Assembly (NCBI GenBank): GCA_002376715.1
Contig: DFOK01000110.1
Span: forward strand, 67 to 64,066
Reading direction: 5' to 3'
DNA: 64,000 bases
Source of the DNA: Bacteroidales bacterium UBA3543
GTDB taxonomy: Bacteria > Bacteroidota > Bacteroidia > Bacteroidales > UBA932
In this document: one piece after another, positions 7,638-14,148 of the stretch
Position numbering within the stretch: position 1 is the stretch's first letter
Layout: each line of letters begins with the position of its first letter
Position numbers and translations under genes: made by a program
Notes under the pieces: model-generated
What the model was told of the DNA's origin: nothing
Database searches by the model: none
The model's input: the letters and a program-made list of their open reading frames with translations, nothing else

Positions 7638-7680
7638 TTACGGGGTGCAGGGTTATAGATTTGGGGCTCTGAGCTTGGCC
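7637..7680. repeat. Short G/T-rich member of the post-stop element family
   Basis: ttacggggtgcagggttatagatttggggctctgagcttgg begins at the stop codon of the GH3-family gene. Confidence 0.4.
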
Positions 7681-7681
7681 A

Positions 7682-7759
7682 ACATTTGGTGGAAAACGGC
7701 AAATTACATAAAAACATTTGGTGGAAAACGGCAAATTGACGAAAAAAATTTGGTGGGGA
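7682..7759 (+). repeat. Two exact 24-bp direct repeats plus a degenerate third copy upstream of the AAA ATPase gene
   Basis: ACATTTGGTGGAAAACGGCAAATT at 7682-7705 and 7714-7737 (32-bp period). A partial AATTTGGTGGGGA at 7747-7759 contains a TTTG in -33 position. Confidence 0.8.
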
Positions 7760-7772
7760 GCTTGAAAAGTTA

Positions 7773-7780
7773 TATTTTTG
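7773..7780 (+). promoter_or_regulatory. Bacteroidetes-type -7 promoter box (TAnnTTTG)
   Basis: TATTTTTG at 7773-7780, with TTTG at 7749-7752 (20-nt spacer), 18 nt before ATG 7798. Confidence 0.5.
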
Positions 7781-7797
7781 CCTAAAAGTCTAAGAAT

Positions 7798-9144
7798 ATG
7801 GCAGAGGATATGATTCATTTCAAGAGAAAGATTTATGACACTATGCTCAAATGGAAAAATGAGCGTAATGGTGATACCGCATTGCTTATACAAGGAGCTC
7901 GCCGTGTTGGTAAATCCACTATTGCGGAAGAGTTTGCACGCAAAGAGTATAAATCGTACATATTGATCGATTTCTCAAAAGTCTCCAAAGAGGTCAGCGA
8001 TTTGTTCAATGATATATCGGATTTGAATTATCTCTTCATCAGGTTGCAATTCATTTTCCAAGTAGAATTGCATGAGCGAGAGTCTGTAATTATTTTCGAC
8101 GAAGTACAGTTGCAACCATTGGCAAGGCAGGCTATCAAACACCTTGTCAAGGATCATAGATATGATTATATTGAAACCGGCTCTTTAATATCCGTAAGAT
8201 CCAAAAGTCGCGATATCATTATTCCAAGTGAAGAAACCAAGGTGAATATGTATCCCATGGACTATGAGGAATTCAGATGGGCATTGGGAGATAATGCAAC
8301 CATACCTTTATTGCGTACGGCATTTGAAAAGAAAATGCCGCTTGGCGATGCTGTTCATAGAAAACTTATGCGTGATTTTCGGTTGTATATGCTTGTGGGA
8401 GGTATGCCTCAAGCTGTTTCCGCATACATTAATACCAATAACTTTACAGCAGTAGATGTGGTTAAACGAGACATCATTGCTCTATATGAAGAGGACTTCG
8501 GTAAGATTGATGATTCGGGAAGAGCAAAAGCTATGTACGATGCCATACCGGCTCAATTAAGCAGAAACAGGTCACGATATCAAGTCGGAAATGCCATCCC
8601 TGAAGAGAAGGTCGATAGGGTAATAAATATCATCAAGGATATGGAAGACTCTATGACAACAAATGTGGCTTACCATGCTGATGACCCCAATGTGGGCTTG
8701 GCATTGACTATGAATCAGGAATATTTCAAGATGTATGCTTCCGATACCGGTCTTTTCGTTACGCTTGCATTTAAGGATAGTGACATAACGGAAAATGTTA
8801 TTTACAAGAAGTTGCTCAGTGACAAACTAAGCGCCAACCTTGGTTATGTATATGAAAATGTGATTGCTCAGATGTTAAAAGCTACCGGCAAAAACTTGTT
8901 CTATCACACCATACCATATGCTGACGGTAAAAAGTATTATGAAGTAGATTTTATAATCACTGACAAACATAAAATTTCACCCATTGAGGTTAAATCATCG
9001 GGGTATAAAACGCACAAATCACTAGACGAATTTTGCGTCAAGTTCTCTGACCGCATAATGAACAAGTATGTGATTTACACAAAAGACTACAGATATGAAA
9101 ACGGGGTACACTATGTACCTGTTTATATGACAATGTTTTTGTAA
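7798..9144 (+). CDS. AAA-family ATPase with DUF4143-type C-terminal domain
   Basis: 448 aa. Walker A GARRVGKST, Walker B-like VIIFDEVQ; overall layout matches the AAA_14/DUF4143 ATP-binding proteins common in Bacteroidales. Confidence 0.8.
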   Translation: MAEDMIHFKRKIYDTMLKWKNERNGDTALLIQGARRVGKSTIAEEFARKEYKSYILIDFSKVSKEVSDLFNDISDLNYLFIRLQFIFQVELHERESVIIFDEVQLQPLARQAIKHLVKDHRYDYIETGSLISVRSKSRDIIIPSEETKVNMYPMDYEEFRWALGDNATIPLLRTAFEKKMPLGDAVHRKLMRDFRLYMLVGGMPQAVSAYINTNNFTAVDVVKRDIIALYEEDFGKIDDSGRAKAMYDAIPAQLSRNRSRYQVGNAIPEEKVDRVINIIKDMEDSMTTNVAYHADDPNVGLALTMNQEYFKMYASDTGLFVTLAFKDSDITENVIYKKLLSDKLSANLGYVYENVIAQMLKATGKNLFYHTIPYADGKKYYEVDFIITDKHKISPIEVKSSGYKTHKSLDEFCVKFSDRIMNKYVIYTKDYRYENGVHYVPVYMTMFL

Positions 9145-9351
9145 ATCTTGCGTTTCATAATTCAAAAACACCAAAACGCGATTATCGGTAATGCAATTGT
9201 AGCTATTTCCCTAAATAAATCAAATTAGTGCATTGTTTGCAAAAAGCAGACATAGATTTTTTTTTATTAAAAAAGTATCTATCTTTATCCACTGAAACTC
9301 AATCTTTTAACGGGGACTATTTTTTAAACTTTTGCCAAATAATAAACAGCT

Positions 9352-10857
9352 ATGAAACTCAAACTACTTATTTCGGCACTCCTAGCCCTATTGGTGGCGG
9401 GCTGCACGCACAATATTAATCTTCCCGAGCCTGTTGAAGGAGAGGGAAAGATGGTTACCATACGCGCAACGATCCCACCGGAGACCCGCGTAGCGTACGA
9501 TGACGGCACACGCACACTCTCATGGCAGGACGGTGACCAGCTCCTGCTGGTAGGATATGATGACAACGGTGCCTATAAAGGACATAATGTCTTTACATTT
9601 CAAACAGGAAGCAGCGGTAATTTTACGGGAAATGCCGTATCAGGGGCTACAAAATACAAAGCCTATTATCCGGGAAATGTCATCACGCTGGACCTAAACG
9701 GCAACTTAAAACCTCTTCTCGCCAATTTCTGGCAACAGACACAGAACGGAAACAATTCTACTGCACACCTTCGCGATAAAATCCTCATGTATGACGAGAC
9801 TGCCAATCCCCTCAACGAAACTTTCAACTTGGCTTTGAAGAGCAGCATTATCAAATTTAATCTCCAAAACGTGCCGGCCAACGTGGGAACACTAGTCAAC
9901 CTGATTTGGATTGTAGAGAATGAACCGGGAGTGAATAAACATTTGAGGCTTGATGTAACCGGTGTAACCTTCTCTACCGCCCAGGACAATATCACCGCGT
10001 TCCTCGCTTTTGACCCCACCGTGACACAGGTCGCTGCAAACGGAAAGGTGAGAATATCACTAATTGGGGAGCAGACGTATGTGTGGACGAGCGGCACCTT
10101 AACGGAAGGAAAGAACTACTCCGTAGGAAATCGCTACACAGGTAGTGTAAATAGCGGTTGGGTAAGGGTAATCAACCCGCTCAGCTACGTTGCCGCATAT
10201 AATGTAAATCCTGACGGTACCGGCTTTGACAATAATCTGACAGCCTGCAATGTGAGCGGTCACTTTACTTGGAATGCTGCAAGGGCTATCAATATTCCCT
10301 GTTATTACCTGCCGAGCAATGAAGAATGGATGAGTATTGTGCCGAAGCGAGGTAACTACGTTTATGTTGACTTCGATAGCATGGCTCCCAAGCCATATGA
10401 TAATATTACTGAAAACGTCATAGTTCAAGGAGCGAACATTACTATGACCAGCGATTTTCGCAATTATTCTAGGCTTTGTTATGCCCTTCGTTACCAGGGT
10501 ACCGGTATGGTCTCTGCTTGGAAGTATGAGTATAAAAACTATAATACTAATAATTGTCATATGAAGATTACTTGTCGTAGTGTAGCAGCATCGACAAGCA
10601 TTGATGATATCGCCAACGAGGCTTTCTGGAGTACCGGTAACGGGAACGATGTGGTTCGATATTTCCCTGCCGGCGGTAGCCTTAGTAACCAGTACGGATA
10701 CCAGATGAGAGGCTCTAGTGGCCTTTTTTGGTCTTCTACTGAGGCTGAAAACAATAGCGATTACGCTTTGATTATGGTATTCGGTCCATTCAATGCTGTA
10801 TCCAATAGAGCAACCCTAAAGTCTGAGCAGTATACTGTCCGTTTGTTTACCAATTAA
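9352..10857 (+). CDS. Surface lipoprotein: fimbrillin-like N-terminal region plus C-terminal FISUMP (Fibrobacter succinogenes major paralogous) domain
   Basis: 501 aa with lipobox LLALLVAGC. SWQDGDQLLL-type motif as in fimbrillin-like proteins. The C-terminus (YYLPSNEEWMSIV ... FPAGG ... GLFWSSTE ... YTVRLF) matches the FISUMP pattern. Confidence 0.65.
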   Translation: MKLKLLISALLALLVAGCTHNINLPEPVEGEGKMVTIRATIPPETRVAYDDGTRTLSWQDGDQLLLVGYDDNGAYKGHNVFTFQTGSSGNFTGNAVSGATKYKAYYPGNVITLDLNGNLKPLLANFWQQTQNGNNSTAHLRDKILMYDETANPLNETFNLALKSSIIKFNLQNVPANVGTLVNLIWIVENEPGVNKHLRLDVTGVTFSTAQDNITAFLAFDPTVTQVAANGKVRISLIGEQTYVWTSGTLTEGKNYSVGNRYTGSVNSGWVRVINPLSYVAAYNVNPDGTGFDNNLTACNVSGHFTWNAARAINIPCYYLPSNEEWMSIVPKRGNYVYVDFDSMAPKPYDNITENVIVQGANITMTSDFRNYSRLCYALRYQGTGMVSAWKYEYKNYNTNNCHMKITCRSVAASTSIDDIANEAFWSTGNGNDVVRYFPAGGSLSNQYGYQMRGSSGLFWSSTEAENNSDYALIMVFGPFNAVSNRATLKSEQYTVRLFTN

Positions 10858-10887
10858 TCAGGCCTATTGCCTGATATATGGCTTAAT

Positions 10888-10938
10888 CCTCGGGGTGGGG
10901 ATTGGGGCTTTGGCACCACGCACCTCGTACTACAAATG
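10888..10938. repeat. Composite member of the post-stop element family (G-tract half plus C/A half)
   Basis: cggggtggggattggggctttgg followed by caccacgcacctcgtactac. Confidence 0.45.
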
Positions 10939-11204
10939 GAAACGAATTAAAATTTTTTATTGCAATTAATTTGTTTAACTTAGTCCGCTGAAACACATAT
11001 AGTTCAACTAGAAATCTTCTCTATGTTTGTGCGACAACGGAATATAAAATTTAGCCAAGTCGAACAATCGTCCGTAAGTCTACTCTATCTCGCTGATATA
11101 GAGTTATTTATTGCCCTCCCCCATTCAAAAATAGGCAGTATTTATACCCGCTACTCGTGTTCTGTTGGCCCCATATAGGTCACAAGACGAACTATTAAAA
11201 ACAA

Positions 11205-11342
11205 ATGACTATGAAAAACAACGAATTCAAATTGGCGGAACATTACGTCGCTCCCGATCTCAAAGTTATCGAAATTGAACTAACCCAAAACATCCTCACG
11301 GCAAGCCTTCCCGACGTTGGGGACGGAGGAGATGCGTGGTAG
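11205..11342 (+). CDS. Unannotated small ORF (45 aa), unknown function
   Basis: ATG at 11205 (second ATG at 11211) to TAG at 11340-11342: MTMKNNEFKLAEHYVAPDLKVIEIELTQNILTASLPDVGDGGDAW. It is below the 60-aa cutoff of the ORF track. The sequence is not low-complexity and has an acidic Gly-rich tail ending in Trp. Confidence 0.4.
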   Translation: MTMKNNEFKLAEHYVAPDLKVIEIELTQNILTASLPDVGDGGDAW

Positions 11343-11462
11343 GTGTGATTAGCTATTTACCGTTAACCATTGGTAATTAGCCGAAAGTGCAACGGATATA
11401 AAACTGAGTAAACAATAAACTAAATTCAAGGTCTTTGGCAAAATTCTCAATCTATCCTATAT

Positions 11463-13792
11463 GGAAGCAGCGGTAATTTTACGGGAAATGCCGTATCTGG
11501 GGCTACAAAATACAAAGCCTATTATCCTGCAGATGCCATCTTCCTGGATCCTAATTATGGTGTGCATTTTGATAAATTATGGCAACAGACACAGAACGGA
11601 AACAATTCTACGGCACATCTAGGCGACAAGCTGTGTTTGTGTGACGAGTCGGGCCACGGTTTAGATCAGCTATTTACATTAGCAGCCAAGAACAATATCC
11701 TAAGACTTAATCTCACCGGCATGCCGGAGTGGTTAGGAACCCTCAAAAGACTGATTTGGACCGTTGAGTACGAAACAGGATGTACTCGATCCACATGCCT
11801 CGATATCACCAACTATACATACACTTCAGGTGACGAACTGATTGCTTACCTCGCTTTTGACCCTACGGTGACGAGGATCATTGCGAACGGAGAGGTAAGA
11901 ATCACGCTGATAGGCGACATGTCGTTCGAGTGGAAAGCCACAACGAACAAGCCGAATGGCATGAACTACGCACAAGGGAATACCCGCTACTACGCTTCAG
12001 TAAGTGATGGTTGGCTTAATGTTGCTCCACTGATGTACACCATCAGAACCAATGACCCAAATACGGAATATGGAATCAAGCAACCATTTGCTTCCTCCAT
12101 AAACCCTTGCCATATGACTATCTACTGGGGAGATGGATCCGAAAACACATTTTTAACACAAAACAGTACACTTTCACCGGAGAGATTTGCTTCGCATAAC
12201 TACACCGGCGTAGGTGATTATACAATTACCATCATTTCCGACCAAGCAGGTGCCGTAAAACAGATGCCGCAAATCACATTTTACGAACATATTGGAAACA
12301 ACTTATACGAAAGCGATACGCTGCTTACAACAGTACTGACCCCTTTCCCCAACATGGAGGCAAATTCTTTCGAAGAATGCTTCTGCGGCTGCAATCAATT
12401 AACCTCCATTCCGGCAGATCTGTTCAGGTTCAATACTCAAGCAACAAATTTCCATGGCTGCTTCTGGCTGTGTACCAAATTAACCTCCATTCCGGCAGAC
12501 TTGTTCCAATACAACGTGTCTGCAGAAAATTTTGCGGGTACATTCTTAGCCTGCTACTCATTAACTGAAATTCCTACGGGATTGTTTGACGACAATACGC
12601 AAGCAACAAATTTCACCCGCTGTTTCGAATATTGTACCTCATTAACTTCTCTTCCTCAGGGATTGTTTGGCTCCAATGCGAATACGCAAGCGACAATTTT
12701 CGAAAGCTGCTTCAAACACTGCATATCATTAACTACTGTTCCTACAGGATTGTTTAGCAACTATTCACAAGCAACAACCTTCGAAAGCTGTTTCCAATAT
12801 TGCCGTTCATTAACGACTCTTCCTCAGGGATTGTTTAGCACAAATACACAAGCAACAAATTTCAGCCTGTGCTTCCATTATTGTACTTCATTAAATAACC
12901 TTCCTACGGATTTGTTTAAATATAATACGCTGGTGACAAATTTCAGCGATTGTTTCTTGCAATGCCACTCATTAACTACTCTTCCTGCGGATTTGTTTAA
13001 GCATAATACGCTGGTGACAAATTTCGACGGATGTTTCTGGGCCTGCGAGAATTTAAACAACATTCCGGTAGATCTGTTCAGATACAACACGGCAGTAACA
13101 ACTTTCTCTTACTGCTTCGCGGGGTGCCTCTCATTAGACAATATTCCGGCAGACCTGTTTAGGGACAATACGGGCGTAATAAGTTTCCACGCATGCTTCG
13201 CTCAATGCACCTCGTTAACTACTATTCCTACGGGATTGTTCAGTGCTAATGCGCAAGTACAAGATTTCGCCAACTGCTTCCGAGAATGCAACTTTACTCA
13301 ACTTCCGGCAGATCTATTCACCGGTAATGGGGCGGCAATATCTTTCAACTTTTGCTTTTACGACTGCCCCGCGTTAACTTCTCTTCCTCAGGGATTGTTT
13401 AGCAATAATACGCAAGCAGAATCCTTCTATGGCTGTTTCAACAACTGCACAGCATTAACTACTCTTCCTGATAACTTGTTTTCAAATAATTTGGTTGCAA
13501 CAAATTTCGAAGACTGCTTCAAAAATTGCACTAAGTTGGTTTTAAAAAGGAAATTTTTCCGCTTCCGCAGGGCAATGACCAAGGTTTTTTTGCGAATAGA
13601 ACAATGCGTTTCGCAAATTGTTTTAACGGTGTAGGTTCGAACTCAGCAGTTCAAGGTACTGCCCCTGAGTTATGGAACTTTTACGGAGGTGGGGGTCAAA
13701 CGGGTCCAACAATATGGGTGATTGAAAACTGTTTCACTAACGCCAATGTAACTAACTACAACGATATTCCTAACTATTGGAAAGGATTATAG
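11463..13792 (+). pseudogene. 5'-truncated, frameshifted paralog of the 9352..10857 lipoprotein, fused to a PKD-like segment and 15 BspA/DUF285-type leucine-rich repeats
   Basis: Homology to gene 9352 begins abruptly at 11463 (64/65 nt identical to 9607-9671). There is no signal peptide and no in-frame ATG; the frame is open only from 11424. The reading frame breaks near 13535-13545, so the ORF track splits it into 11562..13634 and 13604..13792. A hairpin terminator follows the second frame. Confidence 0.6.
12369..13538 (+). repeat. Coding tandem repeat, about 81 bp x 15 (27-aa Cys-containing LRR units)
   Basis: Units of the form F-x-x-C-F-x-x-C-x-S-L-T-x-(I/L)-P-x-x-L-F-x-x-N-T-x-A-T-N. Neighbouring units at about 12895-12955 and 12969-13025 are nearly identical at DNA level. 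Confidence 0.85.
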
Positions 13793-13826
13793 ATCAAAAA
13801 ATCCACCGTGAGGTAGATTTTTTGAT
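13793..13826 (+). terminator. Hairpin terminator after the LRR pseudogene
   Basis: Perfect 11-bp inverted repeat ATCAAAAAATC (13793-13803) / GATTTTTTGAT (13816-13826), starting 1 nt after stop 13790-13792. Confidence 0.65.
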
Positions 13827-13939: not shown

Positions 13940-13947
13940 TACCTTTG
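13940..13947 (+). promoter_or_regulatory. Bacteroidetes-type -7 promoter box for the riboswitch-btuB transcript
   Basis: TACCTTTG is an exact TAnnTTTG match, 7 nt upstream of the predicted riboswitch P1 stem. Confidence 0.5.
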
Positions 13948-13953
13948 CATCGT

Positions 13954-14099
13954 AATTGAGGCTAAAGGGAATCCGGTGCGAACCCGGGACTATACCCGTA
14001 GCTGTGAGTTCTGTAATTCCTAAGCTATTCTTTGCCACTGTCCTTTGCGGATGGGAAGGCAGCTCGAAGGAGGAACAAGTCAGAAGACCTGCCTTGATT
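13954..14099 (+). promoter_or_regulatory. Cobalamin (B12) riboswitch
   Basis: Conserved core AAAGGGAATCCGGTGCGAACCCGGGACTATACCCGTAGCTGTGAG, GCCACTG, GGGAAGGC and AAGTCAGAAGACCTGCC. The P1 stem pairs aattgaggc (13954-13962) with gccttgatt (14091-14099). It lies 50 nt upstream of a TonB-dependent receptor gene. Confidence 0.9.
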
Positions 14100-14148
14100 A
14101 TTTGTTGGATTGGAAATCCCGGGTTTGGATTTCATGATTTGTTGTTAA

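Follow-up and report, generated by a model that had tools for sequence, protein, structure and literature searches.

Type V pilins, the FimA/Mfa superfamily of the Bacteroidia, have been reviewed (PMC8512630), and their structures include BF1858 (3t2l), BACOVA_04980 (3ufi), PG_0181 (4rdb), Mfa2 (5nfi) and Mfa3 (5nf4). With the genes studied here, which carry a DUF8237 module, they have in common a lipoprotein signal with a lipobox and an all-beta N-terminal module of ~250 aa; the extra C-terminal binding-type domain found here is a feature of tip pilins as well. The likeness rests on predicted fold, and polymerisation and protease maturation are putative in our case. Unlike type V pilins, however, these proteins give no Pfam fimbrillin match, the module being DUF8237. 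Moreover, no pilus operon (anchor, usher-like or tip set) surrounds the two genes of interest, gene 1 and gene 2, and the C-terminal modules are FISUMP-like or DUF285/PARCEL leucine-rich repeats (LRR). The latter recall the BspA-like/PARCEL (DUF285, TIGR02167) proteins of Bacteroidales and Mollicutes, with the same 26-27-aa two-Cys/Phe repeats and LRR solenoid. Here, in contrast, a pilin-like lipoprotein module and then a beta-sandwich linker precede the repeats within one protein, and the copy in the window (the whole 64,000-nt stretch of DNA that was analysed) is broken.

Silent-cassette antigenic variation operates in Neisseria pilE/pilS, Borrelia vlsE and Mycoplasma genitalium MgPar. In the pilS/vls type, several promoterless partial cassettes have conserved flanks in common with one expression site. 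Our locus resembles such systems in that a 5'-truncated, start-less copy lies beside an intact paralog and a short non-reciprocal transfer has occurred. Unlike pilS and vls, it has one truncated copy, whose homology to gene 1 is on the 5' side only. It also departs from silent cassettes in that the truncation arose when a gene intact in relatives suffered a deletion that can be dated, a second lesion is present, the transfer is older, and no population heterogeneity is seen at the level of assembly consensus. Concerted evolution and ectopic gene conversion are likewise familiar from bacterial multigene surface-protein families such as Neisseria opa. As in opa-type families, particular pairs of genes here share near-identical patches although the sequence around them has diverged, with gene gain, loss and decay alongside. 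We consider it very probable that the locus reflects ordinary turnover of a surface-protein family by birth, death and conversion, with no programmed switch.

Architecture of the locus

The features of the locus, all on the + strand, are as follows.

9352..10857, +, gene 1: 501-aa lipoprotein; N-module DUF8237, predicted type-V-pilin-like; C-terminal domain divergent, FISUMP-like
9545..9671, +, gene-conversion tract inside gene 1: minimum extent 9561-9666; gene-1-type sites at 9544 and 9672
10858..11204, +, intergenic region: kept in the sister lineage, 92% identity to contig L021
11022-11029, +, Bacteroidetes -7-like box TATGTTTG (TAnnTTTG): from a motif scan; candidate promoter
11205..11342, +, small ORF of 45 codons: conserved; likely start at 11211, giving 43 aa
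11343..11462, +, leader remnant: spans from the small ORF to the lost 5' end; homology to the leaders of C54 and L021 extends to the junction at 11462|11463
11463..13792, +, gene 2 pseudogene: assigned by ortholog identity, repeats, TIGR02167 match and the predicted LRR solenoid fold of the ortholog
11463 to ~12107, +, gene 2 N-module, from ~codon 94
~12108-12368, +, gene 2 beta-sandwich linker, predicted
12369 to ~13540, +, gene 2 PARCEL/DUF285-type LRR, 15 units
13544..13548, +, gene 2 frameshift site: A5, against A6 in the intact ortholog
13549-13792, +, gene 2 C-terminal cap, now out of frame
13793..13826, +, hairpin (inverted repeat) immediately 3' of the gene 2 stop codon: 15-nt arms, 93% complementary

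The description of gene 1 as a lipoprotein gene, made in an earlier sequence-only reading, is borne out by the 501-aa ORF and its lipobox, MKLKLLISALLALLVAGC. The N-module carries PF26707 (DUF8237) as a precomputed annotation; our Pfam scan of gene 1 returned no family at E<=0.01, fimbrillin models included. The AF2 model of gene 1 matches the FimA/Mfa-superfamily 'cell adhesion proteins' 3t2l, 3ufi and 4rdb, and Foldseek comparison with 3t2l, 3ufi, 4rdb, 5nfi, 5nf4 and 4h40 gave a probability of 1.0 with modest TM scores (0.35-0.45). The predicted product is a lipoprotein precursor with a two-domain beta-sandwich pilin fold. The C-terminus, previously labelled FISUMP, scores 21.6 bits against TIGR02145, which is sub-threshold (cutoff 41.65). 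Of 10 paralogs, 7 match the same model at E<=0.01, the lowest E-value being 7.8e-7. The label therefore needs softening to FISUMP-like, and the domain appears to be, at best, a divergent FISUMP relative.

In gene 2, family homology begins abruptly at 11463 and no signal peptide is present, just as the same reading had noted. The first ATG, GTG or TTG in the open frame (11424-13634) is the GTG at 11562. The 15 repeats that it had counted are indeed there, each of ~27 aa. TIGR02167 scores 34.6 bits on them (cutoff 30), PF03382 is precomputed on many homologs, which bear BspA family LRR surface protein names, and the predicted fold of the gene 2 ortholog gives LRR solenoid matches. Together these point to LRRs of PARCEL/DUF285 type. 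Pfam scans of gene 2 and of P0001, its full-length ortholog, returned no match. For the segment once called PKD-like, no Pfam family was found even at E<=1 in 12048-12401 or in P0001, so that name falls; 'Ig-like linker' would be the safer one, as a beta-sandwich is predicted there. The hairpin at 13793-13826 is probably a terminator.

Full-length gene 2 in related genomes

Comparison across strains found gene 2 in relatives at full length, with a signal peptide and the upstream unit, and it was copies of this kind that the sequence-only reading had said would point to ordinary decay. A sister lineage (L021, L037-L042; >24 contigs) carries a 1037-aa ortholog with a lipobox at the syntenic position. 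The order there is GH3, ATPase(s), the gene 1 ortholog (499 aa), the small ORF, a further paralog (gene X), the gene 2 ortholog and a B12 locus. G010, a different species within the genus, has a full-length homolog of gene 2 that lies 79 nt after the small ORF. When aligned, 11462|11463 in the window corresponds to 4819|8283 in L021, and ~3.46 kb, from the leader through codon 94, is absent from the window lineage relative to the sister lineage. Beyond this point the N-module of gene 2 is 97% identical to P0001 at the nucleotide level. By this alignment, the point at which homology starts, 11463, is a deletion endpoint and not a recombination site.

The junction at 11462|11463 is identical in 8 aligned assemblies. 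Indeed, all 19 contigs of the window lineage (12+7), produced by different assemblers, have one layout and one junction. No intermediate alleles occur among these 19, which represent assembly consensus from seemingly one widespread clone, so that rare variants with the deletion or an amplification would escape. A second lesion lies near the 3' end, where the run at 13544-13548 is A5 in 5/5 aligned window-lineage assemblies and A6 in L021; in 18 further contigs, the 62-aa ORF that follows this frameshift is predicted as an ORF of its own. Gene 2 is also the sole internally truncated member among ~17 paralogs, the others having their own signal peptide or being cut by contig ends. Taken together, the full-length ortholog of the sister lineage, the 5' deletion and the 1-nt loss mark gene 2 as a young pseudogene with two lesions.

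The frame of gene 2 is free of internal stops over 2.1 kb, and its dN/dS against the ortholog is 0.35, vs 0.40 for gene 1, in a comparison based on 29 differences only. An open frame and such a dN/dS fit very recent inactivation, and by themselves do not show loss of function.

The conversion tract and the history of the locus

The two genes share a direct repeat, 9607-9671 and 11463-11527, with a spacing of 1856 nt. The reported 64/65 identity proved correct. The block is made up of exact matches of 35 and 29 nt and is in frame in both genes; at the background identity of 57%, its chance expectation is ~4e-12. A second block of 32 nt (9730-9761 and 11580-11611), cited earlier as a further trace of a recent event, is identical as claimed. 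However, it is uninformative on recent events because it is widely conserved in the paralogs: the DNA encoding its motif, WQQTQNGNN, is 88-96% conserved in at least 10 others.

The history of the longer block can be read from 375 informative sites. From 9561 to 9666, 43 consecutive sites all depart from the gene 1 type, 42 of them matching P0001; outside the tract, 318/332 are of gene 1 type. The tract (9545..9671) is identical at 124/127 positions to the sister gene 2 ortholog, vs 82/121 to gene 1's own ortholog. At 3 sites it is of P0001 type and not of gene X type, and a window-specific 2-nt variant is common to the tract and gene 2. Outside the tract, homology between gene 1 and gene 2 is ~57%. 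These patterns show, at the sequence level, an ectopic gene conversion with the gene 2 lineage as donor and gene 1 as recipient. The earlier proposal of a recent conversion between the two genes stands in this form. Its 5' edge does not, as the tract begins upstream of the 9607/11463 boundary, and the block 9607-9671 is only its 3' half. Because the tract holds ~50 nt upstream of 9607 that gene 2 has since lost by deletion, the transfer predates the truncation. By the same comparison, the 64/65 block represents what the deletion spared of the tract.

We propose the following history. Gene 2 would originally have been a full-length LRR-type member, preceded by the small ORF and leader typical of the family. 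Ectopic gene conversion then carried a patch of 106-127 nt (codons ~65-107) from gene 2 into gene 1, as the tract shows. Next came the ~3.46-kb loss seen relative to the sister lineage, by illegitimate deletion (0-1 nt of microhomology) in what may have been one event or two. It removed the whole of gene X and the last 15-40 nt of the leader (depending on the reference copy), together with the start codon, signal peptide, lipobox and first 94 codons of gene 2. In a further event, one A was lost from the A6 run near the 3' end of gene 2, as the A5 run shows.

Other readings of the locus have to be weighed against this one. The sequence-only reading had suggested a possible cassette or switch. 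On that view, RecA recombination between the 65-nt repeats would delete 1856 nt and join the signal peptide and N-terminus of gene 1 to the LRR body, so that a different domain is displayed. Such an event is mechanically possible, the repeats being direct, in frame and 64/65 identical, and ectopic recombination clearly happens in the DUF8237 family. However, the fusion product would keep the A5 frameshift, and the change would be one-way, destroying the C-terminal domain of gene 1 and the small ORF. Moreover, no high-identity protein of fusion size appears among the matches listed or among the 90% cluster members of the gene 2 ortholog. A scan of public metagenomes gave 0 hits for the predicted deletion junction and 0 for the parental junction used as its control, and so carries no weight here. 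With an intact ortholog in relatives that marks the truncation as loss, a second lesion, a single truncated paralog and 0/19 window-lineage contigs deviating from the uniform layout (assembly consensus), the idea finds no support, and we regard a deletion switch as highly unlikely. A related view, in which gene 2 is retained as a pilS/vls-like silent donor for the non-reciprocal conversion of gene 1, would accommodate both the one existing tract and the frame that is still open at a dN/dS of 0.35. Yet the transfer is older than the truncation, ~50 nt of the tract being gone from gene 2. Further, only one truncated copy exists, homology to gene 1 outside the tract is low, and gene 1 alleles fall into only two classes among 10 cluster members, each tracking lineage (assembly consensus). 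A silent donor is accordingly improbable.

It is also conceivable that gene 2 remains in use and that translation from the internal GTG at 11562 or the ATG at 11721 gives an LRR protein that is not a lipoprotein; a long open frame, low dN/dS and the retention of the upstream unit and a possible promoter all fit. Its product, however, would have neither a signal peptide nor the initial strands of the pilin-like fold, its C-terminal cap is out of frame, and the intact relatives are all lipoproteins, which together make continued use very improbable. The chance that the repeated gene family created the truncated junction as an assembly artefact in this MAG is close to nil: several members do lie at contig ends, but the junction agrees in the 8 aligned assemblies from different samples and tools (SPAdes-style NODE, k127, k141, JGI), and no repeat is common to both of its sides. 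Ordinary family turnover, the reading we prefer, has a simple lesson: a silent-cassette look-alike, in the shape of a truncated paralog whose boundary carries an identical block, can come from plain decay, in this case because a deletion chanced to end within a conversion tract that was already there.

Two further mechanisms were considered and rejected. A recombinase-driven shufflon or invertible element does not fit direct repeats with no recombinase among the neighbours, which are GH3, AAA_14/DUF4143, TonB receptor and ABC transport genes. As for slipped-strand phase variation, the homopolymer is no longer than A5/A6, and its length does not vary among the 5 aligned window-lineage assemblies.

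The DUF8237 family and its upstream small ORF

The family has ~17 members, in which a type-V-pilin-like N-module (DUF8237) is followed by a FISUMP-like or LRR C-terminal module. Pair-specific near-identical 5' patches recur family-wide (122/124, 87/89 and 72/73). They were found by a seed-and-extend scan; short ones escaped blastn when it was filtered at 90% identity. Patch edges coincide with the conserved motifs LLLxGYD and YKAYYP. The family shows patchy 5' homogenisation and evolves by conversion, repeat-number change and gene loss. A bolder view would make DUF8237 loci contingency loci, in which a ~110-nt 'mini-cassette' (codons ~65-107, LLLxGYD to YKAYYP) is repeatedly exchanged among neighbouring paralogs, broken copies serve as sequence archives and the small ORF controls or senses cluster expression; we think this unlikely. 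A full-text literature search for 'DUF8237' returned no papers, and neither the DUF8237 lipoproteins of uncultured digester Bacteroidales nor the conserved small ORF upstream of them had been described before. The descriptive value is modest: a large family of surface lipoproteins in anaerobic-digester Bacteroidales, in which a pilin-like module is combined with swappable C-terminal binding modules.

Gene 2 had also been called promoterless. The start codon and signal peptide are gone, but the small ORF, the leader and the TAnnTTTG box all remain upstream. The small ORF and leader precede 8 other family loci, and the small ORF has 9 copies in its own genome. It is present too in G010, UBA1392 and AnMBR.bin311. 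A Pfam scan of the small ORF gave no match, and its homologs form 37 clusters, every one annotated as hypothetical protein. Its core has a pN of 0.015-0.044 vs a pS of 0.19-0.57. DUF8237 gene clusters appear to have the small ORF as their usual first cistron, and this strongly conserved reading frame of 43-45 aa is the by-product of the analysis with the greatest potential.

Gene 1 and its truncated paralog

Gene 2, the 5'-truncated paralog with leucine-rich repeats (LRRs; 11463-13792), lies downstream of the intact lipoprotein gene, gene 1.

Features of the locus and copies of the small open reading frame (ORF)
9352-10857, + strand: gene 1, 501 aa, N-terminus MKLKLLISALLALLVAGC, a lipoprotein signal with lipobox
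11205-11342: small ORF of 45 codons between gene 1 and gene 2
13942-14110: cobalamin riboswitch (RF00174, 89.6 bits), directly downstream
Small ORF copies on contigs of the window's own genome: C3:17456, C3:26781, C22:964, C35:890, C54:1570, C95:18157, C106:23090, C109:22651
Small ORF copies outside that genome: L021:4562-4699; L050:2650-2796, - strand

A single open frame spans 11424-13634, in which no ATG, GTG or TTG precedes GTG 11562, and similarity to gene 1 and other family members starts exactly at 11463, at GSSGNFTGNAVSGATKYKAYYP. The sequence-only reading was thus right that homology starts abruptly at 11463 with no upstream start codon, and right in counting 15 LRRs, each of ~27 aa. 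The family C-terminal cap sits in a different frame (13535-13792), so a frameshift is present. Gene 2 was also taken to be bare upstream, which proved incorrect: the small ORF is followed by a leader remnant (11343-11462) homologous to the sequence 3' of the small ORF elsewhere. In the C54 copy that homology stops ~40 nt short of the start codon, and on the sister-lineage contig L021 it stops ~15 nt short of the start of gene X, an extra LRR paralog. Missing from gene 2 are the leader end and the first ~94 codons.

Deletion, frameshift and the sister lineage

Among database sequences, gene 2 is closest to P0001, its full-length ortholog (1037 aa) from a sister lineage. On the P0001 contig and more than 24 others, synteny with the window extends from a GH3 gene to the cobalamin-riboswitch/TonB locus, with flanks at 92 to 96% nucleotide identity. 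Between these flanks the sister-lineage order is gene 1 ortholog (499 aa), small ORF, gene X and full-length gene 2 ortholog, to which window gene 2 is 97% identical across the surviving N-module. The window junction between 11462 and 11463 corresponds to L021 positions 4819 and 8283, which are separated by 3463 nt in the sister lineage; microhomology at the junction is at most 1 nt. G010 represents another species of the genus; there, a lipoprotein homolog of gene 2 that is full length starts 79 nt past the small ORF. The truncation of gene 2 is a deletion. The net loss may represent one event or two, both being possible because gene X and the gene 2 ortholog have nearly identical leaders and 5' ends in the sister lineage. 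The second lesion of gene 2 is a 1-nt loss, A6 to A5, at 13544-13548. The same junction and truncated ORF occur in 12+7 window-lineage contigs from many samples and assemblers, and a post-frameshift ORF of 62 aa is called in 18 further contigs.

Gene X itself (L021:4835-7889, equal to L037:5835-8889) carries, in every contig examined, a 1-nt indel at TATTTTAGG that splits it into 411 and 617 aa, making it a second decaying family member of the locus. The LRR units number 15 in the window (12369-13540) and ~21 in the sister-lineage ortholog (L021:8001-11114), and one window-lineage sample (L027) has one unit fewer (ORF of 610 aa versus 637 aa). In the interval between GH3 and gene 1 (window 7649-9238 versus L037:403-3528), the AAA_14/DUF4143 ATPase genes are non-homologous between lineages, with one in the window (+ strand) and two in the sister lineage, of which one is reversed. 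The interval from GH3 to the riboswitch is, as a whole, a variable island; its conserved 3' flank is marked by the riboswitch, which heads a TonB-receptor/ABC B12 uptake locus.

Gene conversion and the proposed surface switch

Repeat search and blastn both recovered the direct repeat 9607-9671/11463-11527 at 64/65 identity, as originally described. The copies are 1856 nt apart, start to start, and the chance expectation for such a block is ~4e-12, given 57% background identity between genes 1 and 2 outside it. The second, 32-nt block is truly identical, but it had been offered as a sign of a recent event; it encodes the family motif WQQTQNGNN, whose DNA is 88 to 96% conserved in at least 10 other paralogs, and is therefore uninformative on that point.

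At 375 informative sites, where the sister-lineage orthologs of genes 1 and 2 differ, window gene 1 matches its own ortholog except in one unbroken 43-site run (9561-9666), in which 42 sites have gene-2-type states; the sites that flank the run, 9544 and 9672, are of gene-1 type. Within the tract, gene 1 is identical at 124/127 positions to the gene 2 ortholog and at 82/121 to its own; outside it, the values are 61% and 96%. The unconverted sister allele resembles the closest FISUMP-type paralogs of gene 1 and has a 3-nt gap in common with them, the tract states are gene-2-type rather than gene-X-type, and a window-specific 2-nt variant is common to the tract and window gene 2. For these reasons, gene 2 was the donor and gene 1 the recipient, and the transfer took place inside the window lineage. 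The tract extends 46 to 62 nt upstream of 9607, into sequence now absent from gene 2, so the conversion is older than the deletion. Gene 2 first converted gene 1, and the deletion then cut inside the tract, leaving the identical block as a remnant. The proposal of gene conversion was thus correct in kind and mistaken about the boundary, since the abrupt edge at 11463 is a deletion endpoint that fell within the conversion tract.

Other paralog pairs carry pair-specific near-identical patches in their first 300 to 400 nt (122/124, 87/89 and 72/73), and gene X and gene 2 have a similar 5' patch in the sister lineage; ectopic conversion is a general habit of the family. In the pairs C3:20342/C106:25648, C54:1883/C54:3500, C3:17757/C109:22444 and C35:1088/C95:18355, 5' segments are 90 to 100% identical on a background of 50 to 70%. 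Several patches stop near gene nt 300 to 330, right past a YKAYYP motif, as does the gene 1 tract at its 3' edge, which may be a recurrent breakpoint. C22:1-660 and C3:17757-18416 are 94% identical over 660 nt, upstream small ORF included, and are either a very recent duplicate or an assembler-split strain variant.

The two genes had been proposed to form a cassette in which recombination between the 65-nt copies switches the surface domain. Such recombination would be in frame and is mechanically conceivable, but it would be a one-way deletion whose product keeps the frameshift (A5). At the level of assembly consensus, where low-frequency rearrangements would be missed, the database holds only two gene 1 allele classes, and these track lineage. 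There is no recombinase among the neighbour genes, gene 2 is the sole internally truncated family member, and relatives carry full-length gene 2, both as P0001-type copies (more than 24 contigs) and in G010. The last of these is a finding that the sequence-only reading had itself named as refuting its idea. These results do not support the cassette or switch model. In a low-power test, dN/dS is 0.35 for gene 2, no higher than the 0.40 of gene 1, and the gene 2 frame is still open, which favours recent inactivation over retained function. What the locus shows is the ordinary turnover of a multigene family of surface proteins.

The DUF8237 family and its upstream small ORF

The source metagenome-assembled genome (MAG; 1.86 Mb, 119 contigs) holds ~17 paralogs with a common N-terminal module of ~285 aa, followed by either a FISUMP-like domain or a beta-sandwich and LRR array; C3, C97, C106 and C116 carry LRR-type members that are full length and have lipoboxes of their own. 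A Pfam-A search gave no match; in precomputed annotation the N-module is PF26707 (DUF8237). The gene 2 repeats match TIGR02167 (PARCEL) above cutoff, and homologs carry PF03382/DUF285 under the name of BspA-family LRR surface proteins. The TIGR02145 (FISUMP) match stays below threshold in gene 1 but recurs in 7/10 paralogs. When AlphaFold models of gene 1 (pLDDT ~80-90, residues 60-270) and of full-length P0001 (mean pLDDT 82.7) are set against the PDB, the predicted N-module groups with 'cell adhesion proteins' of the FimA/Mfa type-V-pilin superfamily, and the predicted repeat region with LRR solenoids. Because a full-text literature search on 'DUF8237' found no paper, we regard this pilin-like lipoprotein family, with its FISUMP-like or PARCEL-LRR modules and conserved upstream small ORF, as undescribed.

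The small ORF also lies upstream of eight other family loci in the window's genome and of family genes in the sister lineage, G010 and the UBA1392 and AnMBR.bin311 MAGs, with a length of 43 to 48 aa across DUF8237 clusters. Profile and homolog searches matched it to no known family, and it has no signal peptide. Its 30-aa core, APDIEVIEIELTQNILTASLPDVGDGGDAW, is under strong purifying selection, with pN of 0.015 to 0.044 versus pS of 0.19 to 0.57. With pN/pS of ~0.05, its conservation is far above that of the lipoprotein genes downstream. The small ORF could be regulatory, as a leader or arrest peptide, or could encode a small partner protein.
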